A program made the translations under genes and the position numbers. A stretch of 60,101 nucleotides of DNA from a virus (lineage: Duplodnaviria; Caudoviricetes): IMG/VR virus record IMGVR_UViG_3300044970_000208, positions 1-60,101 of that record; one strand, written 5' to 3'. How positions within the stretch are numbered: the first letter of the stretch is position 1; the number at the start of each line of letters is the position of its first letter. Of the stretch, positions 1-60,101 are shown in pieces. The notes under the pieces are model-generated. The model did not search any database. It saw nothing but the letters and a program-made list of their open reading frames with translations, and had not been told where the DNA came from.

Positions 1-127
1 TTGCAACAGAATAAGGGGGACTGTTCAGCATCCCTTTAGCTTCAACCGCTTCTCTACTCAACAAAATATTCATATGCTTCTATATAGGTCTTCATAGCTG
101 CCTATCTTCAGATGTGTAGGCTAGTGA
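1..127. repeat. Terminal direct repeat, copy 1 (circularisation overlap)
   Basis: Identical to 59975-60101; 127 nt is a common maximal assembler k-mer. Confidence 0.95.
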
Positions 128-1079
128 TGAAAGAGTATATAGCTAAACAACAACAAAGTAAACAAAAGAAGAAAAACTAACAATCAGCTATAGTTGATGT
201 CTTCACAGTCGAAATTGCGTTAGAGGCTTTATAGACTTCATAGACTGTGTTTAGCGTTTGATGATTGTCTATAATTGTCTGTCATCACAGAGCAACATCA
301 ATTCATATCAACAACATCATCTATGCTCACTGCATTGCTATGTTGTCTATATAGCCCCTACCCCCTACACCCCATAGTTTTACTCCGATTGAAAATGTTG
401 TCAAGCGATATATTTGCATTTGTTGTTTTGTTGCAACATAGTTGTTGTAAAGACAACACTGTTGTAGATGGTACAACACTTTCACAGTCGATTTTCTGTA
501 GCGCCATAGCCTGTGTTGTCAGAAACGCTTTAATGGTCCTGTAGGGGGTTGTTGTAGGAGCAAGGTAGGGTGGTACTGACCCTGTGACGTTAATCGATTG
601 TAGGCATGCTACAGGCCGTGGGTGGGCTACATAGAATACGGATAGAGCGTTTTAGACGGTGGTGGTTAACAGGTTGAAAAAGACCCTTCCGTGGGCTTGG
701 CGGTATACAAATAGCGCCCCACCCCCTACTGGCCCACGCCCGTGCCGCACAGGGCTGCGCTGCGCTGGCGTGAATGCATAGGTATGCGCTGCTGCGCTGG
801 TGAAGAACACGCGACATATACGTTTCACCAGCCTGTAAAAATCTTCAATGAATTCAAAGACTTACACGCATATGAGAAACTGATTCAAAAACAGTTGCCT
901 GATTTAATTGGGGACAGATTAGTGCCTGTTTTTTAAGCAAATGAGAGACTATCGAATGGCGGTATACGATAGCGATTAACTATCAACCATACCCCCATCC
1001 AACGAAGTCCTGCATCACCTACGCATACAACGACAACCGACAAAGCCCCTACAATCGACAGGGTCTAATAGCCCCACAG

Positions 1080-1109
1080 TTGACAGGGCTTTTGCAAGGT
1101 CGCTACAAT
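1080..1109 (+). promoter_or_regulatory. Early sigma70-type promoter P1
   Basis: TTGACA-18 bp-TACAAT, followed by TGAAAGCATCGA shared with P2 and P3. Confidence 0.85.
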
Positions 1110-1155
1110 TGAAAGCATCGACGGCATCGGGTCGTCGTCTTACCGAAGGTAAACA

Positions 1156-1323
1156 ATGCAAACTACTGAAATCATCATCGCCTTGCAAAACGCAAAACTC
1201 TTCGAAGCAGCGAAGCTGCAATGTGGCAACGTTGACAATTTGTCGATGCTTGTTGCTGTAGCAACAGGAAAGGTGGCGGCATACAATGAATTGTATGATC
1301 TGTACCGTGAATTGATGGCCTAA
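1156..1323 (+). CDS. Early hypothetical protein, 55 aa (MQTTEIIIALQNAK...), not in the ORF track
   Basis: First ATG after P1 and its RBS hairpin; open frame to TAA. Confidence 0.75.
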   Translation: MQTTEIIIALQNAKLFEAAKLQCGNVDNLSMLVAVATGKVAAYNELYDLYRELMA

Positions 1324-1343
1324 CATTTCCGAAGGAAAACATC

Positions 1344-1535
1344 ATGCAAAACATCATTCTTCGCAGCGTCACCAAAGGTGACTATGTCAAACGGAAAGCA
1401 GACAGCAAAGCTGTTTACATCAAGGGCGACTACGACAGGACGACGAAGTCGTTTGAGTTGAAGGATGTCGAAGACATAAACCGCTGTGTTTACGTCAAGG
1501 CAGACAAAATCGTCGTTATCGGCTTCACTTACTGA
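1344..1535 (+). CDS. Early hypothetical protein, 63 aa
   Basis: RBS hairpin, tight operon packing. Confidence 0.8.
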   Translation: MQNIILRSVTKGDYVKRKADSKAVYIKGDYDRTTKSFELKDVEDINRCVYVKADKIVVIGFTY

Positions 1536-1546
1536 AAGTAAACATC

Positions 1547-1774
1547 ATGTTCATCATCATTTCCCTCACATCACTCGCCATTGCTTCCTACATGATGCAA
1601 AACGAAATTGCTTTGCAACTGAAGAAAACCTTCGGTTTTATGACAATCGGTCAAGGCTTCAAAAAGCGTCATTACACATTCACCTACAGCGAAGCTGCAC
1701 AATGGGCAGCATGCTATGATGCAGCGACTGTGTATAAGCGTGGCAACTTCGTTGCAGCAAAGCGTTTCAAATGA
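1547..1774 (+). CDS. Early hypothetical protein, 75 aa, hydrophobic N-terminus
   Basis: RBS hairpin, tight packing. Confidence 0.7.
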   Translation: MFIIISLTSLAIASYMMQNEIALQLKKTFGFMTIGQGFKKRHYTFTYSEAAQWAACYDAATVYKRGNFVAAKRFK

Positions 1775-1782
1775 CCCCACAC

Positions 1783-1812
1783 TTGACAGGGGCTTTTGAA
1801 GGTCTGTATAAT
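1783..1812 (+). promoter_or_regulatory. Early sigma70-type promoter P2
   Basis: Perfect TTGACA-18 bp-TATAAT. Confidence 0.9.
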
Positions 1813-1860
1813 TGAAAGCATCGACGGCAATCCCGCCGTCACTTACCGAAGGTAAACACC

Positions 1861-2568
1861 ATGAAAAACGTACTCTCGATTTCCGCTGATGCAAAAACAG
1901 TCAAGGGCGAAACCCTTGGGTTTCTGACAGGTATTCTCTACCTTGCACCAGCCACAACAACCAAGTGGAACACTTGTTCAATGGCAAAAATTGCACAATG
2001 CGACAAAGCTTGTCTCTACAGTGCTGGTCGTGGAGCTTTTAGCTCTGTACAGCAAGCCCGTATTGCAAAAACTGTGCGCTTCTTCGAAGAGCGTGATAGT
2101 TTTATGGCTGACGTTGTTTTCTCGATCAAGTCGTTGATTCGCAAAGCCAGCAAAGCTGGATTGAAACCTTTGGTTCGCTTGAATGGTACATCTGACATTC
2201 GTTGGGAAACCGTAGGTTTGACAGTTGACGGTGTTGCTTATGCCAACATCTTCGATGTTTTCCCTGACGTTCAATTCTACGACTACACAAAAGACGCAAA
2301 CCGCAAGGCTTTGCCTTTGAACTATGATGTGACTTTTTCCTACAGTGGCGTTGAAGGCTTTAAGCCTTTTGTCAACAAGGCGATGGACAAGGGAATGCGT
2401 ATGGCTGTAGTGTTCCGTAGCGAAGCTACCATCCCTGCATCATTCAAGGGTATCCCGGTTGTGTCAGGTGACAAGTCTGACGTTCGTCACCTTGATGCAC
2501 AGGGTGTCGTGGTCGGTTTGTATGCCAAAGGCAAAGCCAAGAGCGATGCTACAGGCTTTGTAGTGTGA
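1861..2568 (+). CDS. GP88-family protein (Cys-cluster, radical-SAM-like)
   Basis: C-x7-CxxxCLY, RLNGTSD, FYDYTK and TFSYS motifs typical of phage gene product 88. Confidence 0.7.
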   Translation: MKNVLSISADAKTVKGETLGFLTGILYLAPATTTKWNTCSMAKIAQCDKACLYSAGRGAFSSVQQARIAKTVRFFEERDSFMADVVFSIKSLIRKASKAGLKPLVRLNGTSDIRWETVGLTVDGVAYANIFDVFPDVQFYDYTKDANRKALPLNYDVTFSYSGVEGFKPFVNKAMDKGMRMAVVFRSEATIPASFKGIPVVSGDKSDVRHLDAQGVVVGLYAKGKAKSDATGFVV

Positions 2569-2575
2569 GACAACG

Positions 2576-2597
2576 CTTCCCCTTCGGGGGAGGCTTT
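2576..2597 (+). terminator. UUCG-capped hairpin after the GP88 gene, possible weak terminator
   Basis: CTTCCCC-TTCG-GGGGAGG followed by a short CTTT tract. Confidence 0.45.
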
Positions 2598-2637
2598 GCA
2601 AAGTCCCTACAGCAAGCAAGGTTGAATAGCCTTGCAT

Positions 2638-2667
2638 TTGACAGGGGTTTTGCAAAGTCTGCATAAT
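2638..2667 (+). promoter_or_regulatory. Early sigma70-type promoter P3
   Basis: TTGACA-18 bp-CATAAT, homologous to P1 and P2. Confidence 0.8.
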
Positions 2668-2673
2668 TGAAAG

Positions 2674-2955
2674 CATCGATGCATCGGCATCATTACAGCA
2701 ACTGTGTTGCTTTTGTTCTTTAAAAACCTAGTGTGGCGTCAGTATGGCGTCAACATGTAAAGCAAAGCATGTTGACACCTGAAATAGGCCAGCGTGATTG
2801 TAAGCACGTAACGTCTTACACTGCTCATAGCACATGAGGATGAAAATGTGCATAGGGACTACATCATGGCATCGGGGTCGGTGCTATATGATGTGGCTTT
2901 CATAAGCCTTGTGGCACAGGGTCACAGGGTTTATATCAAGCCTTCCTGAAAGGAA
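2674..2955 (+). ncRNA. Structured ~280-nt leader or ncRNA downstream of P3
   Basis: No credible CDS; at least 6 consecutive stems with G-U pairs and a small pseudoknot. Confidence 0.5.
2697..2736 (+). promoter_or_regulatory. boxB-boxA-boxC-like antitermination site
   Basis: Hairpin AGCAAC-TGT-GTTGCT, then TGTTCTTTAAAAA (rrn boxA is TGCTCTTTAACA), then GTGTGG. Confidence 0.6.
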
Positions 2956-2962
2956 ACAAAAC

Positions 2963-3169
2963 ATGCAGTGGAATCTTGAAAATCTCAATGTCACTGCTGT
3001 CTATCTTGACAGCATTCCAGTTGCTGGCATGGTGACATTGTCCCGTGTCAGATATGGTGGTGAAGTATCACATCACATCACTCTCACATCACCCATCACT
3101 GTGTATGGCACAGTGCGTGACAGCGTTATCGTTGATCACAAACACATTCAAACTATTTCTTCTTCCTGA
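2963..3169 (+). CDS. Early hypothetical protein (MQWNLENL...), 68 aa
   Basis: Start reassigned to the ATG after the RBS hairpin. Confidence 0.8.
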   Translation: MQWNLENLNVTAVYLDSIPVAGMVTLSRVRYGGEVSHHITLTSPITVYGTVRDSVIVDHKHIQTISSS

Positions 3170-3180
3170 AAGGAAACAAA

Positions 3181-3390
3181 ATGTATACAACACGACGATC
3201 TGGTTTTGACCGTGAAGATGCCCGTCTGCATTATGCTCAGTTGCAAAGCCGCAAAGCAAAGCTTCAACATCACCTCTTCGCTCTTCAGGAAGCAAGAACT
3301 GAGGCGTACAACATGGGTGAATGGGACAGGGTTGACCGTATCCAGTTGGCTATCGATGACACATCCGATGAACTGAAAAAGCTTTCCTGA
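3181..3390 (+). CDS. Early hypothetical coiled-coil protein, 69 aa
   Basis: RBS hairpin, packing. Confidence 0.8.
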   Translation: MYTTRRSGFDREDARLHYAQLQSRKAKLQHHLFALQEARTEAYNMGEWDRVDRIQLAIDDTSDELKKLS

Positions 3391-3402
3391 AAGGAAACAC
3401 AC

Positions 3403-3789
3403 ATGAAAGTATTCGTCTATTTCAATCTGCATCGCAAATGCTTCAGCATCAAGGCACTGGAAGGCCCGAAGAAGGGCCGTGTCATTGCCCATCGTGACGA
3501 TGTGTTGCTCTTCGATGGCACATTCAAGGTGTCCGAAGCTGGTCGTCAGCGTGTCCTTCGTGAACGTAAAAAGAATGTGCATGCTGGTGTTGTCGGTCAT
3601 TGGGATGAGACAGGCACTGACCTGATAAGCATTGACCGTGTCACCACCATTGGTAGGCCCGTCACCTACAACCCATACAAATACAACACCTTTGTATACT
3701 TGTACGGTGAGCATCCTGTCGGTGGTTGTCGTCTTGTGGCACTGACTGTCAACGAAAACAAACGATCTCACATCAACGTCTGGAATTGA
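3403..3789 (+). CDS. Conserved phage hypothetical protein
   Basis: VYFNLH..CFS and FKVSEAGRQRVLRERKKNVHA motifs seen in a widespread phage family. Confidence 0.85.
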   Translation: MKVFVYFNLHRKCFSIKALEGPKKGRVIAHRDDVLLFDGTFKVSEAGRQRVLRERKKNVHAGVVGHWDETGTDLISIDRVTTIGRPVTYNPYKYNTFVYLYGEHPVGGCRLVALTVNENKRSHINVWN

Positions 3790-3854
3790 CAGCGCTTTGT
3801 AATGCTATTGTATCAGTAGCATTACTGACTCACTGTCGAGTCGTCCTGAAAGGA
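3788..3854 (+). ncRNA. Pseudoknotted intergenic RNA element, copy A
   Basis: ACAGC-N5, 12-bp stem GTAA..TTAC, T, 5-bp stem whose loop pairs with upstream GACAG, then GAA hairpin. Confidence 0.6.
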
Positions 3855-3860
3855 AACATC

Positions 3861-4037
3861 ATGCGTTTAATCACCAAGAAAAACGGCATCGAAATATGGG
3901 CACAGTTTGACCAGTCTGCACAGGTCTATGAGTTGTTCTTCGACAACGAAGGGCAGACATACACTGGATGGGCTGTTGATTCCATCAAAGATGCACTGGC
4001 TGCATCGACTTACATCATCCAAGAACAACTGTCCTGA
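3861..4037 (+). CDS. Early hypothetical protein (MRLITKKNG...), 58 aa
   Basis: Start reassigned to the ATG after the RBS hairpin. Confidence 0.8.
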   Translation: MRLITKKNGIEIWAQFDQSAQVYELFFDNEGQTYTGWAVDSIKDALAASTYIIQEQLS

Positions 4038-4048
4038 AAGGAAACATT

Positions 4049-4429
4049 ATGGGCCTCGATATGTATGCATTCACAGTGGATGCGAAAGATGTTGGTGACG
4101 CTGTCACTGATGTGGCACTGGGTGACAATGCTGTAGAGCTATTCTACTGGCGTAAGTTCAATGCTTTGCATGGTTGGATGGAAAACTTGTATCGCCTCAA
4201 AAAAGGCTTGCGAGTAAGCTTCAATTGCACTACAGTGAGATTGACCAGCGAAGACCTTGACCGACTAGAGATGGACACAGGTAATAACAAGCTTGTACCC
4301 ATCAATGGGTTCTTCTTCGGTGAGCAAACGATATATCCCGAAGACCTCGAAAGCGTTGCAACATTCGTTGCTAAAGCAAGAGAGGCACTGGCTGAGGGCA
4401 AGGCTGTGTATTACGACTCATGGTGGTGA
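4049..4429 (+). CDS. Conserved phage hypothetical protein (MGLDMY...YWRK.N.LHGW...YYDSWW family)
   Basis: Recognisable family motifs, RBS hairpin. Confidence 0.85.
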   Translation: MGLDMYAFTVDAKDVGDAVTDVALGDNAVELFYWRKFNALHGWMENLYRLKKGLRVSFNCTTVRLTSEDLDRLEMDTGNNKLVPINGFFFGEQTIYPEDLESVATFVAKAREALAEGKAVYYDSWW

Positions 4430-4456
4430 TCGCCTTCGGCTCACGTAGCTAACGCT

Positions 4457-4526
4457 ACAGCACCCCGTAACAGCCTTCACTGAGGGTTGTTACTGATGCG
4501 CTGTTGCATCGACACTTCCGTAGGAA
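4457..4526 (+). ncRNA. Pseudoknotted intergenic RNA element, copy B
   Basis: Same geometry as 3788-3854 with compensatory changes. Confidence 0.6.
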
Positions 4527-4531
4527 AACAC

Positions 4532-4798
4532 ATGAAAATCGCAGACTTCATCGCCCAAAGCAAGGGCAAGTTCATCACCATCAACTTCATTAAGAAAGAT
4601 GGCACTGTCCGTAAACTGAATGGTCGCATTGGTGTTACCAAGTATCTCAAGAACGGCACAGCCACTGTCGATCTTGACAAATACCTGATCGTCTATGACA
4701 CCCTCAATGCTGGCTATCGTAGCGTCAACAAAGACACCATCGTGTCGGTGACATGTGAAGGCTTGACCATCAACAACAACGCAATGGTGACAGCATGA
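4532..4798 (+). CDS. Small SH3/Sm-like beta-barrel protein (WYL_2/DUF2693-like)
   Basis: FIKKDGTVRKL and VYDTLNAGYRSV motifs. Confidence 0.6.
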   Translation: MKIADFIAQSKGKFITINFIKKDGTVRKLNGRIGVTKYLKNGTATVDLDKYLIVYDTLNAGYRSVNKDTIVSVTCEGLTINNNAMVTA

Positions 4799-5022
4799 AA
4801 ACATACGCTGTAACAATTGTACGATCTAGCTATGTTGACATCACAGTTGATGCCAACAACAAAGATGAAGCCGAAGCACTGGCTTGGTCACAACAAGACC
4901 GTATGCAGTATGAGTGGAACCCCTCTGATGAATGGGAGACACTCAGAGTTGATGAAATTAAAACACTCGGTGAGCTTGAAGCTGAAAGCACCGATGGTTT
5001 CCGCAACCCTGAAAGAGATTGA
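4795..5022 (+). CDS. Acidic hypothetical protein (DpnD/PcfM-like fold)
   Basis: ITVDANNKDEAEALA pattern; ATGA coupling. Confidence 0.7.
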   Translation: MKTYAVTIVRSSYVDITVDANNKDEAEALAWSQQDRMQYEWNPSDEWETLRVDEIKTLGELEAESTDGFRNPERD

Positions 5023-5023
5023 C

Positions 5024-5296
5024 ATGAGCAAAACATTCACCATCACCGTCTATTCAGACCCCGGTCATGCATGGGGCAAGGTCAAGCGTGATGTGCTGGT
5101 CAACCTCGGCATTGCCGACAAGATTAGCCGCTACAGCTACCAGCGTGGCGACTATGCCTACCTTGAAGAAGACTGTGACCTGACCACGCTGTGCATGGCA
5201 CTGAACGAACGAGATACCCGTGTCAAGTTTGTTGAGAAGCGCAGCGAACGTGACAGCAAAATCAGGTCTTACGAAAGGTATGAATATGGCTTCTAA
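5024..5296 (+). CDS. Conserved phage hypothetical protein (DPGHAW...YLEEDCD)
   Basis: Family motifs; start reassigned to MSKTF. Confidence 0.8.
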   Translation: MSKTFTITVYSDPGHAWGKVKRDVLVNLGIADKISRYSYQRGDYAYLEEDCDLTTLCMALNERDTRVKFVEKRSERDSKIRSYERYEYGF

Positions 5297-5386
5297 TGTG
5301 TGGCCGTTTCCGGCATTTCCTAACCCACTCGACACAGGCCGGAAACAACCTGTGTTTAACCCCAACAACCATGAGGATGCACCTTT

Positions 5387-5857
5387 GTGAGCGTAGCGAA
5401 ACACATCCCCATCGCTGTATTCTGTGGCGCTTTGTTGCTCTCGACAGCATCATGTGAGCATCAACCAGTACCCACCGTGGCACAGGCTAATGAGTTCTGT
5501 TGCATGCTGAAGAACATCTACCACGAAGCACGAGGGGAGGGTGTTGAAGGTATGCAAGCTGTGGCACTGGTCACATTGAACAGGGCTAAGCAGCAAGGCA
5601 AGACAGTCTGCGAAGTTGTATACCAACGTAAGCAATTCTCTTGGGCAAACACTGCGAAGGGTCGTAACAAACCCCTCACAGGCAACATAGATGTTGCATA
5701 CAACGTGGCGTCAGCCGCAATGAGCGACAAGCTCATTGATATCACCTTTGGTGCCACCCACTACCACACTAAGCAGGTCAAACCTGTGTGGCGTAAGGCA
5801 CTGGACAAGGTTGTTGTTATAAACAATCACATTTTTTATAAAGGAAAAACCCAATGA
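5387..5857 (+). CDS. SleB-like cell wall hydrolase (Hydrolase_2)
   Basis: NIYHEARGE, VTLNR, QFSW, GATHYH and HIFY motifs; signal-like N-terminus. Confidence 0.9.
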   Translation: MSVAKHIPIAVFCGALLLSTASCEHQPVPTVAQANEFCCMLKNIYHEARGEGVEGMQAVALVTLNRAKQQGKTVCEVVYQRKQFSWANTAKGRNKPLTGNIDVAYNVASAAMSDKLIDITFGATHYHTKQVKPVWRKALDKVVVINNHIFYKGKTQ

Positions 5858-6069
5858 CTATTCGTGACGATGACACCCCTGAGAAGGCAACACGTAGCCG
5901 AGGCCGTCCCTCATTCGCTGAGAAGGCAGAGCCTACCCTGCGTGACACCTTCTCGCTGGAGGTGATGAAGGGTGTGCTTGCCTCTGGTGTGACAGTGGAA
6001 GACCCGCTTGCACTGAGTAGGTATTGCTACAAGATTGCTGATGCACTGGTGAAGGTCAGAGATGAATAG
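5854..6069 (+). CDS. Hypothetical protein (TLRDxF...YxIADAL family) with RGRP AT-hook-like motif
   Basis: Motif recognition, ATGA coupling. Confidence 0.75.
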   Translation: MTIRDDDTPEKATRSRGRPSFAEKAEPTLRDTFSLEVMKGVLASGVTVEDPLALSRYCYKIADALVKVRDE

Positions 6070-6244
6070 TACTAACATAGCCTACACTGTAGGTAGGCTG
6101 CATGGGTTACGTAACATGCCTGCCTATCCACTCTTCCCCGAAGGTACTTGGGAAGCTATGCAATACAGACAAGGCTACATCGATGGTGCTGTGGCTCTGG
6201 AAGATGACATACTTAAGGAAAAGACATGGACAACGAAACAGTGA
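6062..6244 (+). CDS. Hypothetical protein, 60 aa
   Basis: Overlap packing; YRQGYIDG motif. Confidence 0.65.
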   Translation: MNSTNIAYTVGRLHGLRNMPAYPLFPEGTWEAMQYRQGYIDGAVALEDDILKEKTWTTKQ

Positions 6245-6381
6245 CAATATCCAAGAAAGAATACGAAGACTTACTCGACTCACAACTTTGGCTCGATTGT
6301 TTGGAGTCAGCGGGTGTAGATAATTGGGGTGGGTATGACGAGGCTATCAAAGAATATCGAGGTGCTAAAGATGCTGAGTGA
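6226..6381 (+). CDS. Small acidic protein, gp5.9-like (possible RecBCD inhibitor/DNA mimic), not in the ORF track
   Basis: MDNETVTISKKEYEDLLDSQLWLDCLESAGVDNWGGYDEAIKEY; AAGGA RBS. Confidence 0.6.
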   Translation: MDNETVTISKKEYEDLLDSQLWLDCLESAGVDNWGGYDEAIKEYRGAKDAE

Positions 6382-6610
6382 AATTGACATTCAAGACTTC
6401 GACGTGCTGCCAGTGCGTGAGTTGTACAAGGTGAAGCCACGTAGCTACATCAAGCTGCCGTGGATGGACGGTACAGGCATTGACGAGGTGGTGTTCTTTG
6501 ACCACATCGATGGTATGTACAGCTACTGTGTGAACATGAACAACGAAGTGATACATCTGCAAGCATGGGCAGAGGTTGCACCGCTTGTGAAGAAAGCAAA
6601 GCCCGACTAA
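6371..6610 (+). CDS. Hypothetical protein (FDHIDGMYSYC motif)
   Basis: Start reassigned to MLSEID after GAGG. Confidence 0.7.
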   Translation: MLSEIDIQDFDVLPVRELYKVKPRSYIKLPWMDGTGIDEVVFFDHIDGMYSYCVNMNNEVIHLQAWAEVAPLVKKAKPD

Positions 6611-6636
6611 TTTGTAGGGTTTTCTGGATGGTTTAT

Positions 6637-6666
6637 TTGACAAGCCATCTGGAAAGCCTTTACACT
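6637..6666 (+). promoter_or_regulatory. sigma70-type promoter P4 inside an inverted repeat
   Basis: TTGACA-18 bp-TACACT upstream of DUF932. Confidence 0.7.
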
Positions 6667-6714
6667 GAAGGCCCAACTCGGCAATCATGCCACAACCTAG
6701 CAAGGAAACACATC

Positions 6715-7554
6715 ATGGCAAATCACGTCATCTTCTCCCGCAACATCGACAACTCTGCTCTGACACTTGAGCAGATTCAACACCGTGCTCCTGCTGCGTT
6801 CAGCACCACCAAGTCTGAGCGTTTGAGTGACCGTTATGTATCGCTCAATACCAGTGATGTGCTGCCCATCATGGCAGACTATGGCTACCTTCCAACACAG
6901 GCTGCACAAAAGCGTAGCCGTAAGGCCAGCACCGAGCATGCTGCCCACATGTTGGCATTCAGTCGTACCACTGACATCGTTGAAGCTGGTGACATTCGTC
7001 CCGAGATCATCTTGTACAACTCTCACGATGGCACAGGCTCAGTGAAGCTGTTTGCTGGTGCATTCCGTTTCATCTGTAGCAATGGCATCGTGGCAGGTGA
7101 TGGCTTTCAATCCCGCATCTACCACAGCAAAGCATTGACAGGCTTTGAAGAGATGTTGCGTAACACAGTGGCTACATTGCCTGATCTGATGGGCCGCATT
7201 GACAGGATGCGTGGTGTGTCGTTGTCTGTTGGTCAAGTACATGACATGGCAATTGCTGGTGTTGCTACCCGTTGGGACGACTACACAGGTCAACCCCGTG
7301 GTGCTTACGCTGTGTCACAGACAGTCAAGGATGTGATGAATGTTCGCCGTTATGGTGACGAAGGCTACGATGCATGGACTGTGTTCAACCGCATTCAGGA
7401 AGGTGTGATTCGTGGCAATGCGATGATTCGCTCCATCACTGAGACACATCCCGAAGGTGTGATGCGTAAGGCTCGACCAGTCAACTCCATCAAGGAAGCT
7501 GTGCGTATCAACACAGAACTGTGGAATATTGCTGACGAATTCGTTACTGCGTAA
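6715..7554 (+). CDS. DUF932/DUF945 family protein
   Basis: SDRY, PEIILYNSHDG, AGAFRFICSNG and WTVFNRIQE motifs; start reassigned to MANHV. Confidence 0.9.
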   Translation: MANHVIFSRNIDNSALTLEQIQHRAPAAFSTTKSERLSDRYVSLNTSDVLPIMADYGYLPTQAAQKRSRKASTEHAAHMLAFSRTTDIVEAGDIRPEIILYNSHDGTGSVKLFAGAFRFICSNGIVAGDGFQSRIYHSKALTGFEEMLRNTVATLPDLMGRIDRMRGVSLSVGQVHDMAIAGVATRWDDYTGQPRGAYAVSQTVKDVMNVRRYGDEGYDAWTVFNRIQEGVIRGNAMIRSITETHPEGVMRKARPVNSIKEAVRINTELWNIADEFVTA

Positions 7555-7646
7555 CGTCAATGGCCTTAACCGCTATGGGGATGCCACTGCGTGGCAGCAA
7601 TCGGTGACAGCATGGAGAGACATGCAACAACACAACAACATAGGAA

Positions 7647-8474
7647 ATGTTAATGAATCAAAACAACGCTATCGGTATGTTCATGGGTCTGTTCATCGGT
7701 GATGCACTCGGTGCGCCATTGGAATTCACTGAGCCTAACACTGGCTCCCCACTCAAGGACATGGTCGGTGGTGGTGTTCATGAGACAGCACCGGGAGAGT
7801 GGACAGACGATGGTGCTATGGCAATGGCTATTGCTGATGCCTACCTCAGCTACAAACGCTTTGCTCCCGGCATCATTGCACAGAACTTCAAACAGTGGAG
7901 AAACAATGGAACTTTCGGTACTCGATCTTATTGTTTTGATATTGGAACTACTACTGCTGAAGCGCTGAGTGCATCGTCCAACAAGCGTCCCTATGGTGGC
8001 TCTTGTGCCCTCATGACAGACGGTAACGGTGCGATCATGCGACTGGCTCCACACATACTGTTCAACCACAACAACAAGACGATGGCGATTGCTGAGTCTG
8101 TTGCTGGTGGCTTGCTCACTCACGGTACAGGTAAGTGTGTTGCCTATAGTGCTGCACTGGCTGAAGAGTTGTTCGATGGGTCTGCACCAAACAAAACCCT
8201 GTACGACAAAGGCATCAAGGAAGAGAGTGGCACAGTGATGGGCTGCTATGCATCGGCATGGCAGTCTGTTGCAGCTACATCGTCCTTTGAAGACGCTCTC
8301 ATCCACGCTGTCAACAAAGGTGGTGACGCTGATACTGTTGGTGCTGTGACAGGTATGATTGCTGGTCGCATCTATGGCTACGATGCCATCCCTCAACGAT
8401 GGATTGATGCACTGGTTGACCACGACAAGTTGTTGGCGACAGCAACTATGCTTTACAACATGGGTGATGTATGA
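7647..8474 (+). CDS. ADP-ribosylglycohydrolase (DraG/ARH family)
   Basis: GDALG..EF, WTDD, GNGAIMR and GDADT metal-binding motifs. Confidence 0.93.
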   Translation: MLMNQNNAIGMFMGLFIGDALGAPLEFTEPNTGSPLKDMVGGGVHETAPGEWTDDGAMAMAIADAYLSYKRFAPGIIAQNFKQWRNNGTFGTRSYCFDIGTTTAEALSASSNKRPYGGSCALMTDGNGAIMRLAPHILFNHNNKTMAIAESVAGGLLTHGTGKCVAYSAALAEELFDGSAPNKTLYDKGIKEESGTVMGCYASAWQSVAATSSFEDALIHAVNKGGDADTVGAVTGMIAGRIYGYDAIPQRWIDALVDHDKLLATATMLYNMGDV

Positions 8475-8691
8475 CAAAAGGAACAACGTGACAATCAGAC
8501 TAACCAAAGACGGCACAGCCGTTGTAGACACCGAATACTATTGGCAACCCATTGCAACATGCCCAAGGTCTGCGAAGGTGCAGCTATTGAGTGTGCATGG
8601 TGTTGCTGTGTACGGGGAGTATCATGGCAAGGAAAAGTTCTGGACACATTGGGCACCGCTACCTAAGAAACCTAAAGAGGAAACAACATGA
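8467..8691 (+). CDS. DUF551-like phage protein
   Basis: WQPIATCP...THWAPLP; start uncertain (8467 or GTG 8488). Confidence 0.7.
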   Translation: MYDKRNNVTIRLTKDGTAVVDTEYYWQPIATCPRSAKVQLLSVHGVAVYGEYHGKEKFWTHWAPLPKKPKEETT

Positions 8692-8897
8692 GAGACACGA
8701 TAGACATGGCCCGTGAGTCATGGATTGACGTTTACGGGCTTGGGCATGACAGAGCAAAGTTTATTGAGGCACTTAAGCATTTTGAAGCCCTTGTCCGTGC
8801 TGATGAGCGTGAGGCGTGTGCTGGATTGTGCGAAGACCACTTCTTATCTGACGGCGACTGGTGCGCCAACGCCATCCGAGCAAGGGGAAACACATGA
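8688..8897 (+). CDS. Hypothetical phage protein (EREACA..C...CA.AIRARG family)
   Basis: Family motif, RBS. Confidence 0.8.
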   Translation: MRDTIDMARESWIDVYGLGHDRAKFIEALKHFEALVRADEREACAGLCEDHFLSDGDWCANAIRARGNT

Positions 8898-9982
8898 ACC
8901 TAGCCCGTTACATGCAACGTGTTGACAACGATGGTGTCGCCTACTACCGATACAACCCACCGTCTGACGCTGTCGAAGCCAACATTGTCAAGCGCATCAA
9001 GATAGGAACCAACCTTGTTGAAGCCATCAACTATTGCAACGAACAGAATGAATTGCTTGACGAGTGGAGGCAGCATCACCGCTACCTCAAGAACTTGACA
9101 GACAAGTCAACCGTCAACGATCTAACCAAGAGCTATATCAACAGTCTTGAACATAGCAGACTTGGTATAAAGACACGAGCAGACTATGCCTACTACCTCA
9201 AGCAATGGTATCAAGACCGCACAGCAGGGCAGGTGTTATTGCACACAAGGCTTGGTAGTTTGACGACACCAATGTGTCAACAAATCTATGACGCTCACGC
9301 CAGCAACAGCATCAGCTTATCCAACCATTCACTGGCTGTGTATCGTCTGTTGTTTAGCTATGCTATCCGCAATGGATTCTGCACCTTCAATCCGTTCACC
9401 AATGTCAAGCGTCAGACAGACCGACCACGCCGCACAGTGTGGACGAAGGAACACATCAAAGCTTTCATGGCTACAGCGTTCAGCAAGTATGAATGGCGAA
9501 GCATTGGCCTCATTGTGTACACAGCCTACTGTGCAGCGCAACGTCTTGGTGACATGCGTATGCTGACATGGGATAGCTATGACATCAACACAGGAGTGTT
9601 GTCGTTGGAGCAGAGCAAGCGTAGAGCTAGGGTGGCGATACCACTGCCGAAGGACTTGCAAGAGATGCTAAAGCAACAACACCTTGACCTATCATGGCAA
9701 CCCTATATAATGCCAGCTTCAACGAAGAATACACCCAAGCCCTACAGCTTGCAGCAGTTGAGCAAGGTGGGTAAGGTGGTGATGCAAGAGGCTGGATTGC
9801 CTGATGAGTTGCAGCTAATGGACCTGCGTAGGACCGCCATCACAGAGATGGTTGAAGTTGGTGTAGCTCTCACAAACGTCATGGCCCTGTCGGGTCATGC
9901 GACAGTGCATAGCCTTACGCCGTATGTCAAACACACATTGAAGAGTGCTACTGTGGCACAGGAACTGAGGGGTATGGTATGA
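8894..9982 (+). CDS. int: Tyrosine recombinase/integrase
   Basis: AQRLGD (R), QSK (K), MDLRRT, SGH and PY catalytic pattern; start reassigned to MNLARY. Confidence 0.88.
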   Translation: MNLARYMQRVDNDGVAYYRYNPPSDAVEANIVKRIKIGTNLVEAINYCNEQNELLDEWRQHHRYLKNLTDKSTVNDLTKSYINSLEHSRLGIKTRADYAYYLKQWYQDRTAGQVLLHTRLGSLTTPMCQQIYDAHASNSISLSNHSLAVYRLLFSYAIRNGFCTFNPFTNVKRQTDRPRRTVWTKEHIKAFMATAFSKYEWRSIGLIVYTAYCAAQRLGDMRMLTWDSYDINTGVLSLEQSKRRARVAIPLPKDLQEMLKQQHLDLSWQPYIMPASTKNTPKPYSLQQLSKVGKVVMQEAGLPDELQLMDLRRTAITEMVEVGVALTNVMALSGHATVHSLTPYVKHTLKSATVAQELRGMV

Positions 9983-19500: not shown

Positions 19501-19873
19501 AGAACGCAATGGTGGTGAATGGACAGAGGCACGATTCAGAAGTTTCGTGACCTCTGCCTTACGTGCAGCGTCAAGGCGTTGGCCTCCTAAGTACAAGGCT
19601 TTGAAGGAAGCTTTCGTGGGTAGGAAGGTGAATGCTAAGACGGGTAAGCAGGCAATGCATTACCAGTGCGCTGAGTGCTCTAAACATTTCGTAGCAACAG
19701 ACGTTCAAGTTGATCACATCCATCCTGTTGTAGACCCTAAGAAGGGCTTCACTACATGGGACAACTTCATTGAACGTATGTTCTGTGAGATAAAGAATCT
19801 TCAGGTGCTATGTAAGCCTTGCCATAAAATCAAAACTGATCAAGAGAAACTTGAAAGGAAAAAGAAAGTATGA
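19475..19873 (+). CDS. HNH endonuclease
   Basis: CAEC..VDHIHP..NLQVLCKPCHKIKT; start uncertain. Confidence 0.88.
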   Translation: MKRFTVTVKERNGGEWTEARFRSFVTSALRAASRRWPPKYKALKEAFVGRKVNAKTGKQAMHYQCAECSKHFVATDVQVDHIHPVVDPKKGFTTWDNFIERMFCEIKNLQVLCKPCHKIKTDQEKLERKKKV

Positions 19874-20760
19874 GCTTCCTAAAATATCAACACCTTGAAC
19901 GCTACGGTAACACCGAAGTGGAAGGCATTGAAGTGGGTACATGCTATGTCTTCCCTAAGCTGGACGGTACTAACGGTAGTGTCTGGTATGAGGACGGCAC
20001 ACTGCGATGCGGTAGTCGCAACCGTGAGCTTGCACCAAACAACGACAATGCTGGTTTCATGAACGCCATGATGGACAATGTGTCCGTGTTAACGTATGTA
20101 ATGGCGAACAACGAACATATACTGTACGGTGAATGGCTTGTGCCGCATACACTGAAGACCTACAACGACGATGCATGGCGCAAGTTCTATGTGTTCGATG
20201 TGTTTGATCGCAAGAAAGAACGACTGCTTAGCTATGACGAATACTCTGAGGGCTTGGTTGCTGCTGGTATCAACGTCATTGCCCCTATTGCCATCATCAA
20301 GAACGGTAGCATCGACCACTTTACTGAGTGTCTTAGCAAGGCACACTACTTGGTGAAGGATGGTGAAGGTAGTGGTGAAGGTGTTGTCATCAAGAACTAC
20401 GACTACAAGAACAAGTATGGTCGTCAGACTTGGGCTAAGATTGTCACCAACGAATTCAAAGCCAAGCATCACATTGCAATGGGTGCGCCTGTTGTTGGTT
20501 GTGAAATCGTTGAAGAGAAGATTGCTGCTAAGTATGTGACGCAAGCTTTGGTTGACAAGGTGGAAGCAAAGATTGTCAACGAGATGGGTGGATGGTCATC
20601 GAAATATATCCCTCGACTGATCAACACTGTGTGGTACGATGTAGTCACTGAAGAGACTTGGAACTTTGTCAAAGAGTTTAAGAATCCGAAGGTGGACTTC
20701 AAGGTGTTGTCGCATTACGTGACAGCGAAGATTAAAGAACTGAAAAAGGAACTGTTCTAA
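19870..20760 (+). CDS. RNA ligase family protein (Rnl2-like)
   Basis: Motif I KLDGTN, SRNR, GEW, FDV, EGVVIK, AK. Confidence 0.85.
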   Translation: MSFLKYQHLERYGNTEVEGIEVGTCYVFPKLDGTNGSVWYEDGTLRCGSRNRELAPNNDNAGFMNAMMDNVSVLTYVMANNEHILYGEWLVPHTLKTYNDDAWRKFYVFDVFDRKKERLLSYDEYSEGLVAAGINVIAPIAIIKNGSIDHFTECLSKAHYLVKDGEGSGEGVVIKNYDYKNKYGRQTWAKIVTNEFKAKHHIAMGAPVVGCEIVEEKIAAKYVTQALVDKVEAKIVNEMGGWSSKYIPRLINTVWYDVVTEETWNFVKEFKNPKVDFKVLSHYVTAKIKELKKELF

Positions 20761-38335: not shown

Positions 38336-38775
38336 AAATGCTTCATGTAAAGTACAATGCCACCAACTAGCAGCCCTGCCAAGATAATGACAGCCACACC
38401 AATAGCAATGTATTCGGCTATGTCTTCAAGCTGTTGTTTACGCCTTAGTGCTTCACGAGCAGCAGCTTCTTTAGCTTCTCTTCGTTGCCTTGCTGCTTGG
38501 GCTTGGAACTTCAACCAGTCATTCCACATACCCGGTCTACCAGCATACACCATGCGCTCACGCAGTTCTTCTTCCTGTTGACGAAGCTGATCCAGCGCCA
38601 TGAATTCTTCAAGGTCTGAACCTCCACCTTTCTTGGTAGCGTTCTCCTGAAGCTTGGCCTTATTGTCAAAGTAGTCAAAGACCCGAGAGCCAAGCGCAGA
38701 CAACTCTTTACCATTGGCTAAAGCACCTTTGATTACAGCAAAGGCTGCATTGGCTGCTGCAATTTCGGCAATCAT
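38332..38775 (-). CDS. Coiled-coil protein with C-terminal TM helix
   Basis: Composition, coupling. Confidence 0.75.
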   Translation of the reverse strand: MIAEIAAANAAFAVIKGALANGKELSALGSRVFDYFDNKAKLQENATKKGGGSDLEEFMALDQLRQQEEELRERMVYAGRPGMWNDWLKFQAQAARQRREAKEAAAREALRRKQQLEDIAEYIAIGVAVIILAGLLVGGIVLYMKHL

Positions 38776-59792: not shown

Positions 59793-60047
59793 TCAATATC
59801 GTCCTTTACCTTTGCGGTCACGCCAGCCTTCATCGCGCATAGCCTTCTCTACAACATCTAAAGGGAAGTAGTAGCCTGTATGCTTTTCTAAAGCGGCTCT
59901 AACATAATAAACATCACTGTGCGGTATGTGTGTATTGTCTAAGTTGTCGCGATGTAACGCTTTAAACACTTCCGTTGCAACAGAATAAGGGGGACTGTTC
60001 AGCATCCCTTTAGCTTCAACCGCTTCTCTACTCAACAAAATATTCAT
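59793..60047 (-). CDS. Hypothetical protein, first gene of the late arm
   Basis: HIPHSDVYYVRAALE motif. Confidence 0.7.
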   Translation of the reverse strand: MNILLSREAVEAKGMLNSPPYSVATEVFKALHRDNLDNTHIPHSDVYYVRAALEKHTGYYFPLDVVEKAMRDEGWRDRKGKGRY

Positions 60048-60101
60048 ATGCTTCTATATAGGTCTTCATAGCTGCCTATCTTCAGATGTGTAGGCTAGTG
60101 A
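59975..60101. repeat. Terminal direct repeat, copy 2
   Basis: Identical to 1-127; overlaps ORF 59793-60047. Confidence 0.95.

Follow-up and report, generated by a model that had tools for sequence, protein, structure and literature searches.

Start-site hairpins before ten consecutive early genes

The window, that is, the whole stretch of DNA that was analysed, is a complete virus record of IMG/VR (IMGVR_UViG_3300044970_000208; Duplodnaviria, Caudoviricetes) with a length of 60,101 nucleotides (nt). Towards its left end, each of the ten consecutive early genes starting from 1156 to 4532 on the plus strand is preceded by a small hairpin, here referred to as start-site hairpin, which consists of a perfect stem of 4-6 base pairs (bp) and a loop of 3 nt and is followed by an A/C-rich spacer of 3-7 nt and the ATG. 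The loop is GAA in nine copies and GTA in one, and the 3' arm of the stem represents the Shine-Dalgarno (SD) sequence in the form of AGGA(A), GGAAA, GGTAA or AGTAA. An earlier note on this DNA had described ten hairpins with GNA loops over the ribosome-binding sites (RBS) of these genes, and all ten were present as described:

1140-1152, plus strand: start-site hairpin 1, TTACC-GAA-GGTAA, spacer ACA, ATG at 1156
1326-1338, plus strand: start-site hairpin 2, TTTCC-GAA-GGAAA, spacer ACATC, ATG at 1344; stop of gene 1 at 1321-1323
1529-1541, plus strand: start-site hairpin 3, TTACT-GAA-AGTAA, spacer ACATC, ATG at 1547; includes the TGA of gene 2 (1533-1535)
1843-1855, plus strand: start-site hairpin 4, TTACC-GAA-GGTAA, spacer ACACC, ATG at 1861 (gene 4, Pfam GP88)
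2943-2955, plus strand: start-site hairpin 5, TTCCT-GAA-AGGAA, spacer ACAAAAC, ATG at 2963; left border of the gene 5 cassette
3163-3175, plus strand: start-site hairpin 6, TTCCT-GAA-AGGAA, spacer ACAAA, ATG at 3181; includes the TGA of gene 5; right border of the gene 5 cassette
3383-3397, plus strand: start-site hairpin 7, TTTCCT-GAA-AGGAAA, spacer CACAC, ATG at 3403; includes the TGA of gene 6; precedes gene 7 (Pfam Phage_L5_gp82)
3844-3854, plus strand: start-site hairpin 8, TCCT-GAA-AGGA, spacer AACATC, ATG at 3861; left border of the gene 8 cassette
4032-4042, plus strand: start-site hairpin 9, TCCT-GAA-AGGA, spacer AACATT, ATG at 4049; includes the TGA of gene 8; right border of the gene 8 cassette
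4516-4526, plus strand: start-site hairpin 10, TTCC-GTA-GGAA, spacer AACAC, ATG at 4532; GTA variant shared with the orthologue in the nearest relative (L007)

The upstream TGA was likewise found, as claimed in the note, within the loop of four copies (hairpins 3, 6, 7 and 9), and the stop codon of gene 1 is located 5 nt upstream of hairpin 2. Hairpins 1, 4, 8 and 10 have no end of an open reading frame (ORF) nearby. If a possible 27-codon ORF ending in hairpin 5 is counted, six of the ten hairpins have an upstream ORF end within or just before them.

The frequency expected by chance was determined with a pattern consisting of a perfect stem of at least 4 bp, a GNA loop and an ATG 3-7 nt downstream, searched for on both strands. 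The window contains 14 such sites, 12 of which are located on the plus strand at 1140-4526, compared with a mean of 3.39 (standard deviation 1.59, maximum 7) in 100 first-order Markov simulations of the window, so that the excess implied by the note was borne out against randomised sequence. None of the 64 other gene starts listed is preceded by the hairpin motif. The supposed absence of perfect copies before middle and late genes held with this motif, apart from one borderline look-alike, TGGT-GGA-ACCA at 38789-38779 on the minus strand, 3 nt before the late-gene ATG at 38775; its 3' arm lacks an SD sequence, and the site probably arose by chance. AAGGAA(A/C) is the usual RBS at a like distance before many middle and late genes and matches the 3' arm and spacer of the early hairpins; the complementary 5' arm is the only feature particular to the RBS of the early genes. 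Accordingly, the sequence GAAAGGAA occurs seven times in the window, accompanied by the complementary TCCT in all five early copies and in neither of the two middle-gene copies (13637 and 19870).

Within the window, 94% of the cells of the aligned stems are paired, and two of the five pairs are altered on both sides (9 cells), with C-G, A-U and U-A occurring at one pair and U-A and C-G at the closing pair. None of 500 shuffles reached the observed score, and slid partners yielded no cells with double changes. A scan of positions 1-6000 against Rfam (E <= 1) returned nothing at the hairpins and one chance-level snoRNA match at 182-206; hairpins of 13 nt are too short for such models.

A scan of the same 6000 positions for sigma-70-type promoters identified only three sites with 11-12 of 12 consensus positions, none of them at a gene junction:

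1080-1109, plus strand: early promoter P1, TTGACA, 18 nt, TACAAT; 11 of 12 consensus positions
1783-1812, plus strand: early promoter P2, TTGACA, 18 nt, TATAAT; 12 of 12 consensus positions
2638-2667, plus strand: early promoter P3, TTGACA, 18 nt, CATAAT; 11 of 12 consensus positions

The P1 unit comprises genes 1-3, the P2 unit gene 4, and the P3 unit the 27-codon ORF and genes 5-10. All three promoters are near-identical in their spacers (GGGCTTTTGCAAGGTC-like) and first transcribed bases (TGAAAGCATCGA; regions 1080-1130, 1783-1835 and 2638-2690), and the spacer, which is also conserved in relatives, may hold an operator. No phage RNA polymerase was recognised in the PHROG and Pfam annotation of the window's proteins, and the T7-like RNA polymerase domain PF00940 had no match in the whole record; the control genomes likewise gave none. 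The largest ORF (1798 amino acids, virion module) matched no PHROG or Pfam family in searches with sequence profiles only. The base-composition skew of the early region is ordinary. Further elements lie in the leaders and between the units:

1119-1137, plus strand: inverted repeat CGACG...CGTCG in the P1 leader, read from the sequence; candidate 5'-terminal hairpin of the first early transcript
1823-1840, plus strand: P2 leader hairpin GACGGC-AATCCC-GCCGTC, 2 nt before start-site hairpin 4
2575-2594, plus strand: GC-rich hairpin GCTTCCCC-TTCG-GGGGAGGC after gene 4; terminator-like with a weak T-run, absent from the terminator scan list
2697-2721, plus strand: hairpin AGCAAC-TGT-GTTGCT with a T-run behind it, located about 30 nt downstream of P3; resembles an attenuator or terminator
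2866-2949, plus strand: possible upstream ORF of 27 codons; its terminal TCC-TGA provides the 5' arm and loop of start-site hairpin 5

The P2 leader hairpin is kept in relatives, where pair 15-27 is GC in 13, AU in two and GU in two cases and pair 18-24 is GU in five, AU in four and GC in one, which amounts to seven G.U cells at two pairs. These counts were made on a self-named structure, and RNAalifold on the gene 4 leaders recovered the start-site stem only, as the leader hairpin is poorly aligned. The hairpin and T-run behind P3, together with the 27-codon ORF ending in hairpin 5, indicate that genes 5-10 may need read-through or coupling; a stretch homologous to this ORF is present in four of 20 hairpin-rich loci.

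Pairing and cassette borders across a clade of lake phages

A protein search of IMG/VR with gene 4 yielded 591 related stretches, 80 of which were retained as protein-selected loci. The 20-nt junction pattern is present in at least 163 stretches, with as many as seven copies on one contig; most of the contigs concerned have lengths of up to 56-60 kb. The start-site hairpin is thus a trait common to a large clade of lake phages of about 56-60 kb. The 80 protein-selected loci contain 418 perfect triloop hairpins located 2-8 nt before the ATG of ORFs of at least 35 codons, the main types being TTCCT-GAA-AGGAA (84), TCCT-GAA-AGGA (30) and TTTCCT-GAA-AGGAAA (13). Further types are TTACC-GAA-GGTAA (6, and another 5 as TACC-GAA-GGTA), TTTACT-GAA-AGTAAA (5), TTACC-AAA-GGTAA (4) and TTCCT-GTA-AGGAA (3), and a tetraloop form, TTTCC-TAAA-GGAAA, also occurs. 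Among 120 distinct sites of the form NNNNN-GAA-AGGAA-A..ATG from these loci, 89 carry TTCCT and 22 NTCCT as the 5' arm, and at least four complementary bases are present in 111. A search of 596 Gb of bacterial genomes with a 21-nt pattern returned 37 scattered single matches and no multi-copy locus. An origin of the motif from a host or prophage was therefore rejected, and its near-absence from bacterial genomes indicates a trait of the phage clade and not of the host.

The start site of gene 4 was compared across 20 hairpin-bearing relatives, which carry TTACC-GAA-GGTAA, TTACC-AAA-GGTAA, TTCCT-GAA-AGGAA, TTCC-TAAA-GGAA or TTTCC-TTAA-GGAAA at this position; more distant gene 4 homologues have a plain unpaired SD sequence. 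Pairing is kept while both stem and loop (GAA, AAA, TAAA or TTAA) vary, which argues for a structure and not for a sequence-specific operator. The conserved feature is the pairing and not a recognition sequence. The shared operator envisaged in the earlier note is hence not supported in a sequence-specific form, all the more as hairpins of arbitrary sequence occur inside genes of the same lineages. Its claim of compensatory change, by contrast, gained ground, as such changes were observed among the copies of the window, at the gene 4 site across the clade and at hairpin 3, where TTACT/AGTAA is replaced by TTACC/GGTAA in the orthologue of the nearest relative (pieces with about 75-92% nucleotide identity), so that the closing pair has changed in a compensatory manner.

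Two stem classes differ in position. Both copies of TTACC-GAA-GGTAA in the window are located directly behind P1 and P2, and TTCCT-GAA-AGGAA is the stem class of internal junctions. For 153 distinct start-site hairpins of relatives, an upstream stop codon was found inside the hairpin in 53 cases, in the spacer in three and 1-15 nt upstream in 25 (81 of 153).

The GTA-loop variant stands before gene 10, the last hairpin-bearing gene, and is conserved as GTA in relatives. Gene 10 (4532-4798) itself scores 26.3 bits against WYL_2 (Sm-like SH3 barrel), which is borderline at a cut-off of 26.7. Its homologue in the uncultured spring phage MW202701, the nearest record by DNA polymerase (63% identity), has a plain start site without hairpin. 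MW202701.1 (L006) carries its own repeated leader, (G)TTCTA(T/C)AGGA(C/T)A(C/T)AA, before several small genes at 5700-9230, with no GAA hairpin; this leader could pair only by means of G.U and a 4-nt loop and may be an independent start-site motif.

The hairpin junctions also delimit gene cassettes. Genes 5 and 8 are absent from the nearest relative and are removed exactly between two motif copies: there, the upstream flank leads to a single T(T)CCTGAAAGGAAACA copy and on to the next gene, whereas in the window the additional gene is flanked by one copy on either side. In pairwise comparisons of the early zones of 16 genomes, 176 of 858 ends of similarity blocks (21%) fell between hairpin and ATG, compared with 4.8% of random positions, a figure that is supportive only, as gene borders are natural block ends. 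Early genes are thus gained and lost at the hairpin junctions, which are repeated almost letter for letter and thereby provide the site for such exchange.

Hairpins inside early genes

Perfect hairpins are not restricted to the start sites. Between 1140 and 2429, 20 perfect triloop hairpins with stems of at least 5 bp were identified, four of which are start-site hairpins and 16 of which are located within genes 1-4:

1207-2429, both orientations: field of 16 in-gene triloop hairpins with stems of 5-6 bp, starting at 1207, 1368, 1402, 1440, 1465, 1625, 1743, 1962, 2002, 2033, 2147, 2207, 2245, 2305, 2354 and 2417

The remainder of the window has about one such triloop hairpin per kb. Synonymous-codon shuffles of genes 1-4 gave a total of 3.27 (per-gene maxima 2, 3, 2 and 5) as opposed to the 16 observed, and 13 other genes tested showed no excess, all being at expectation. 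Twelve of the 16 hairpins close with C-G, and the loop is RAA or TTY in 13. Their density peaks in the first 1.3 kb behind P1 and then declines; in relatives, the dense zone extends over 3-5 kb, beginning at or just behind the first early promoter. The approximately 1.1 kb of non-coding DNA before P1 does not belong to the hairpin-rich zone. Spacing of the hairpins is only slightly more regular than random (coefficient of variation 0.72 versus 0.86 in simulations), and no conclusion is based on it.

A similar excess was found in 37 homologues of gene 4, which together have 183 in-gene hairpins where 44.2 are expected. Homologues with more than about 64% protein identity, which fall into one lineage, have 4-11 hairpins each, and the others 0-3. 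The hairpins hold their codon position over 66-81% protein identity while the stems differ and the amino acids change to fit: one alignment site carries AAGGCT/AGCCTT, AAGGTT/AACCTT, AGGGTT/AACCCT, TGGCT/AGCCA or CGGCT/AGCCG, and another AAACC/GGTTT, AAAGC/GCTTT or GAAGCT/AGCTTC. In an alignment of 40 gene 4 sequences with 13 named helices, 71.8% of the cells pair, compared with 31-44% for slid partners; as the helices were named from the same sequences, this percentage is biased, and the fair part of the comparison is that of the double changes. Here, 146 cells are changed on both sides, as opposed to 40-85 for slid partners and 68.9 +/- 6.1 for shuffled alignments, and none of 500 shuffles reached the score. 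The loops within gene 4 homologues are rich in A and T and are found in either orientation (TTC 34, GAA 25, GTA 19, TTT 17 and AAA 15). At alignment columns 97-115 (about 1955-1976 of the window), different lineages have the alternative overlapping hairpins TCCAC-GAA-GTGGA and CAAGTG-GAA-CACTTG, and it looks as if the presence of a hairpin in this place matters more than its exact register. In homologues of gene 7, the in-gene excess is smaller (27 versus 9.7 in 19 rows), with less conservation of position. As far as our searches show, covarying hairpins inside early ORFs have not been described, and they are the more surprising part of the findings: searches for phage triloop GAA hairpins and for an enrichment of inverted repeats in early regions returned nothing relevant, and the motif string was met only in unrelated eukaryotic papers.

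Hairpins in genes and at start sites occur together. Among 48 loci, 21 have at least four hairpins in gene 4, and 20 of these have start-site hairpins as well; of the 27 loci with three or fewer, 23 are without start-site hairpins and four have one. On a quick tree of gene 4 the trait needs two changes, only one of which is forced by well-supported branches, so that judging from this tree the hairpin trait would be a single evolutionary invention, possibly with one loss.

The trait is accompanied by gene 7 (3403-3789, plus strand; 128 amino acids), which is present in 19 of 20 hairpin-rich loci and in none of 26 poor loci and five poor whole records. Given the same quick tree, this association stands for no more than two independent events. 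With 2566 matches, the best 120 of which have 64-96% identity, the family of gene 7 is large and unusually conserved, and about 190 nt of the gene match 127 mycobacteriophage records at 68-73% nucleotide identity. No match was found among PDB sequences (best E 0.16), the predicted model (pLDDT 80) had no Foldseek match at E <= 0.001 (best VIA Z 3.4), and an atlas search returned the gene's own family only. We regard gene 7 as a lead and not as evidence.

A proposed role in early mRNA, alternatives and known elements

The best explanation for the start-site element, which we put forward tentatively and with a probability somewhat short of even, is that RNA hairpins in host-transcribed early mRNA mask the SD sequence in a portable stop-SD-start junction. 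Such a junction of 20-25 nt opens each small early gene. It begins with UUCC(U) or UUACC as the 5' arm, which in many cases coincides with the final codons of the ORF before it, and continues with a loop of 3 nt that usually is GAA and often includes the upstream UGA, the SD-containing 3' arm (AGGA(A) or GG(U)AA), the A/C-rich spacer and the AUG. Host RNA polymerase would produce the early mRNAs from the three sigma-70-type promoters. By pairing of the arms, the SD sequence would be held in a small hairpin whenever it is free of ribosomes, which is easily opened in use, and a ribosome finishing the upstream ORF or an arriving 30S subunit would have to open it. Translation of neighbouring cassettes might thereby be evened, tempered or coupled, and less A-rich single-stranded RNA would lie bare at the junctions. 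SD accessibility, and RNase E and Rho acting on naked RNA, form the general basis for these expected effects. The two stem classes, behind promoters and at internal junctions, would fit this arrangement. The junction furthermore belongs to a lineage-wide set of minimal-loop hairpins on the early transcripts, located near the 5' end, at start sites and inside ORFs. It is tempting to speculate that this set provides a cis-encoded shield of the first transcripts before any phage protein exists; as the hairpins are densest in the first operons and fade downstream, the shield would be needed only until phage proteins take over. Exact pairing may be required because helices of 5 bp have no stability to spare.

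Several features point to RNA. Hairpins are dense where the early units are transcribed but not in the non-coding stretch ahead of P1. Every early transcript appears to open with another small hairpin near its 5' end, and the one in the gene 4 leaders accepts G.U besides A-U and G-C at the same pairs, in the manner of RNA helices. In addition, a translation signal forms part of the start-site hairpin, and in half of the copies a stop codon is placed where a terminating ribosome would melt the stem.

A number of observations weigh against this explanation. The minimum free energy of the single RNA hairpins is weak (-1.3 to -3.9 kcal/mol at 37 C, or -1.1 to -3.9 with a second calculation included), no hairpin clearly beats its own shuffles (z -1.40 to +0.24), and the pairing probability is below 0.7 in three of ten local contexts, so that a strong occlusion of the SD sequence has no firm support. 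At 10-20 C, a plausible range for lake temperature, the energies are -2.5 to -6.6 kcal/mol. G.U is nearly missing from the start-site hairpins (one TTTCT among the 120 sites). No upstream ORF end lies within 40 nt of 62 of the 153 hairpins of relatives, which also applies to nine of ten hairpins of the TTACC-GAA-GGTAA type in its 5-bp or 4-bp form; translational coupling can therefore not explain everything. The in-gene loops show no strand preference. For stems of at least 6 bp, triloops are enriched 5.9-fold and thus preferred to tetraloops (2.7-fold), with longer loops at 1.8-fold and, from 7 nt on, about 1.2-fold; nearest-neighbour RNA thermodynamics does not predict a preference of triloops over tetraloops. 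Finally, among 7-bp helices of the early zone, perfect ones stand at 67 versus 13, those with one G.T at 34 versus 24 and those with another mismatch at 106 versus 63. Near-perfect helices with one A.C stand at 12 versus 15, and G.U and A.C counts are ambiguous as a discriminator between RNA and DNA (the gene 4 table gave o = 115 against x = 114).

A broader possibility, which we consider doubtful and less probable than masking of the SD sequence, is that the perfect minimal-loop mini-hairpins filling the early region, about one per 60-70 nt, form a structure code by which the first nucleic acid is marked or protected alongside the L5 gp82-family protein. The start-site hairpins would then be no more than the most conspicuous part of a novel genome architecture in one lineage of freshwater phages. 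As RNA, this code might act as a cis shield against host RNases or Rho or as a later shut-off tag; as DNA, it might consist of hairpins extruded by supercoiling in the manner of phage N4 and read by a new protein.

The above observations on helix perfection and loop length lead to the strongest of the rival explanations, namely that the hairpins act in DNA, as short perfect palindromes with minimal, AT-rich or GNA centres, extruded as hairpins or cruciforms from the negatively supercoiled DNA that enters and is transcribed first, which would be read by a protein or alter topology or processing; at start sites, the palindromes would be forced to form around a fixed SD sequence in short intergenic gaps. 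An enrichment that is confined to perfect Watson-Crick helices and drops steeply with loop length would be expected from this, as would the equal use of GAA/AAA and their complements TTC/TTT in the in-gene loops, the frequent C-G closure and RAA or TTY loops of the in-gene hairpins and their highest density directly behind P1. N4 hairpins of 5-7 bp with a 3-base G..A loop are reported to extrude in vivo at physiological supercoiling (PMC4496689). The zone nevertheless starts at the first promoter and not in the DNA before it, the adjoining leader hairpin contains G.U pairs, and six of the ten start-site hairpins close with T-A and not with the C-G needed for a very stable DNA mini-hairpin. Calculated DNA folding energies of the ten hairpins are only -1.0 to -3.2 kcal/mol at 37 C and again not clearly beyond those of shuffles, with parameters that may omit the bonus for GNA loops, and the structure searches with gene 7 identified no hairpin-reading protein. 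We therefore consider an action in DNA unlikely, if still a serious candidate. Since we weighed the evidence from position somewhat higher, RNA is favoured as the acting molecule and appears roughly twice as probable as DNA, if the RNA version of the factor acting in trans discussed below is included.

RegA and RegB shut off early genes in phage T4, and the hairpins might, with a still lower probability, mark early transcripts for a comparable factor in trans that reads shape, such as a repressor or an endoribonuclease. Their strict specificity for early genes, the conservation of geometry despite weak stability, the co-occurrence of start-site and in-gene hairpins by lineage and the presence of gene 7 in hairpin-rich loci are in line with such a factor. 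Stem and loop, however, vary freely at orthologous sites and thus do not constitute a sequence operator, the link to gene 7 represents one or two evolutionary events on the quick tree, and the gene 7 model matches no known nucleic-acid-binding fold. T4 RegB cuts GGAG in early SD sequences (PMC1702504); the two systems would be alike in having marks in the RBS of early mRNA that could switch early genes off, but GGAG is present in none of the ten motifs, and PHROG and Pfam scans of early proteins revealed none that resembles RegB.

The hairpins might also have no function of their own, identical junctions having spread with their cassettes by recombination. Quasi-palindromes are known to be corrected by template switching during replication, a mutational process that would perfect the palindromes in a way that mimics compensatory change. 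This would account for the indels of genes 5 and 8 exactly between motif copies, for the identical TTCCT at 74% of the GAA-AGGAA sites and for the restriction of the enrichment to perfect helices with minimal loops. It does not account for in-gene hairpins that keep their codon position with other stems and to which the amino acids accommodate, for their excess over synonymous shuffles (16 versus 3.27 in the window and 183 versus 44.2 in the 37 homologues), or for separate stem types behind promoters and at internal junctions; moreover, the trait is limited to early transcription units, whereas replication errors would ignore promoter boundaries. We consider this explanation improbable. A trans-acting antisense RNA was rejected, as the complement of the motif was found only as the motif's own opposite strand, with nine matches at up to two mismatches where 5.16 are expected and none in a plausible hairpin loop.

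The earlier note had also pointed to N4, whose virion RNA polymerase uses hairpin promoters. N4 has three such promoters, transcription starts about 8 nt downstream of the hairpin, and the injected polymerase has about 3500 amino acids (PMC4496689). The elements are alike in their small stems, a 3-base loop with 5' G and 3' A, the location in the early region and stem bases that are free as long as they pair (PMC4496689). The present phage differs in having sigma-70-type promoters and no detected phage RNA polymerase, and its hairpins are located on SD sequences and inside ORFs. A role as N4-type promoters was discarded: the hairpins hold the SD sequence 3-7 nt before the ATG, a start about 8 nt downstream would exclude it from the transcript, and 16 more hairpins in both orientations lie inside ORFs.

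The closest analogue in anatomy is the start-associated sequence (SAS) of Cluster K mycobacteriophages, a fixed asymmetric 13-bp sequence, 5'-GGGATAGGAGCCC, which is described as non-palindromic (Pope et al., 2011; PMC3203893). Both elements are 13 nt in length, are located 3-7 nt before start codons (mostly ATG) in one orientation, contain an SD core and are confined to non-structural genes; in both, the upstream stop sometimes overlaps, the element is conserved before genes of different families, and the function is unexplained (PMC3203893). According to the authors, departures in the extended SAS do not support RNA pairing, and no covariation was reported (PMC3203893). The motif of the present phage, T(T)CCT-GAA-AGGA(A) and variants, does not have the SAS sequence, and the element described here differs further in forming a perfect hairpin with varying stem and loop, in its host range and in the accompanying in-gene hairpins; it is not a member of the SAS. 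The start-site element is real, far beyond chance and clade-wide, and represents a variant of a known, still unexplained element type.

In its evolutionary behaviour, the junction resembles the PeSL (promoter-early stem-loop) cassettes of T4-type phages, in which a sigma-70-like promoter is combined with a stem-loop that acts as terminator (Arbiol et al., 2010; PMC2839356). There too, short repeated motifs flank small non-essential early ORFs of a variable region, and indels and replacements between relatives occur at the motifs (PMC2839356). The junction of the present phage contains neither a promoter (three promoters serve ten genes) nor a terminator (no T-run) and is located on the RBS. 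It has the SD sequence in the 3' arm of a hairpin and, in about half of the cases, an upstream stop in or just before it, which is a likeness to SD-sequestering hairpins. Those known, such as the MS2 operator and the hairpins of coupled ribosomal-protein operons, are single, gene-specific and usually more stable, whereas here a weak standard hairpin precedes every early gene, including the first genes behind promoters, which have no upstream ORF.

For 15 years, start-site repeats such as the SAS have been on record with no function assigned to them. The present case is cleaner, because it offers a true hairpin with compensatory evolution, hundreds of environmental genomes and natural gene gain and loss at the copies. 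It makes testable how phages bring swappable early genes, which are often directed against host defence, under standardised and timed expression, and whether the same device drives cassette exchange. The covarying hairpins within ORFs would demonstrate a selection on nucleic-acid structure that is strong enough to reshape a conserved protein gene. In addition, the junction may serve as a portable part for phage engineering and as a marker for early accessory genes in metagenomes.

Both ends of the window carry an identical stretch of 127 nt (1-127 and 59975-60101). A length of 127 nt is a common assembler k-mer, and for this reason the start point of the genome may be arbitrary, and the repeat may result from overlapping assembly instead of being present at physical genome ends. 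Few convincing genes were found in 1-1078 and at about 57.5-60.1 kb. The minus strand encodes terminase, portal, capsid, tail and lysis genes at 27-57.5 kb, and the plus strand at 1-27 kb a T7-like replication set (primase-helicase, family A DNA polymerase, gp2.5-like single-stranded-DNA-binding protein and exonuclease) as well as thymidylate synthase, ribonucleotide reductase, PhoH, RNA ligase and integrase. The presence of an integrase gene points to a temperate phage, yet scanning bacterial genomes for the motif revealed no prophage copy. The stretch occurs in lake-water metagenomes (DNA sequencing runs), with no RNA run listed for positions 1000-5000. Among cultured phages, those closest in their DNA polymerase are Limnohabitans phage DC31 (52.8%) and Curvibacter phage P26059A (51.1%), a kinship that gives only a weak hint at the possible host. 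Beside the T7-like replication module, an ADP-ribosylglycohydrolase (7647-8474), the integrase, which is of the tyrosine type (8861-9982), and the RNA ligase (19870-20760) are encoded.

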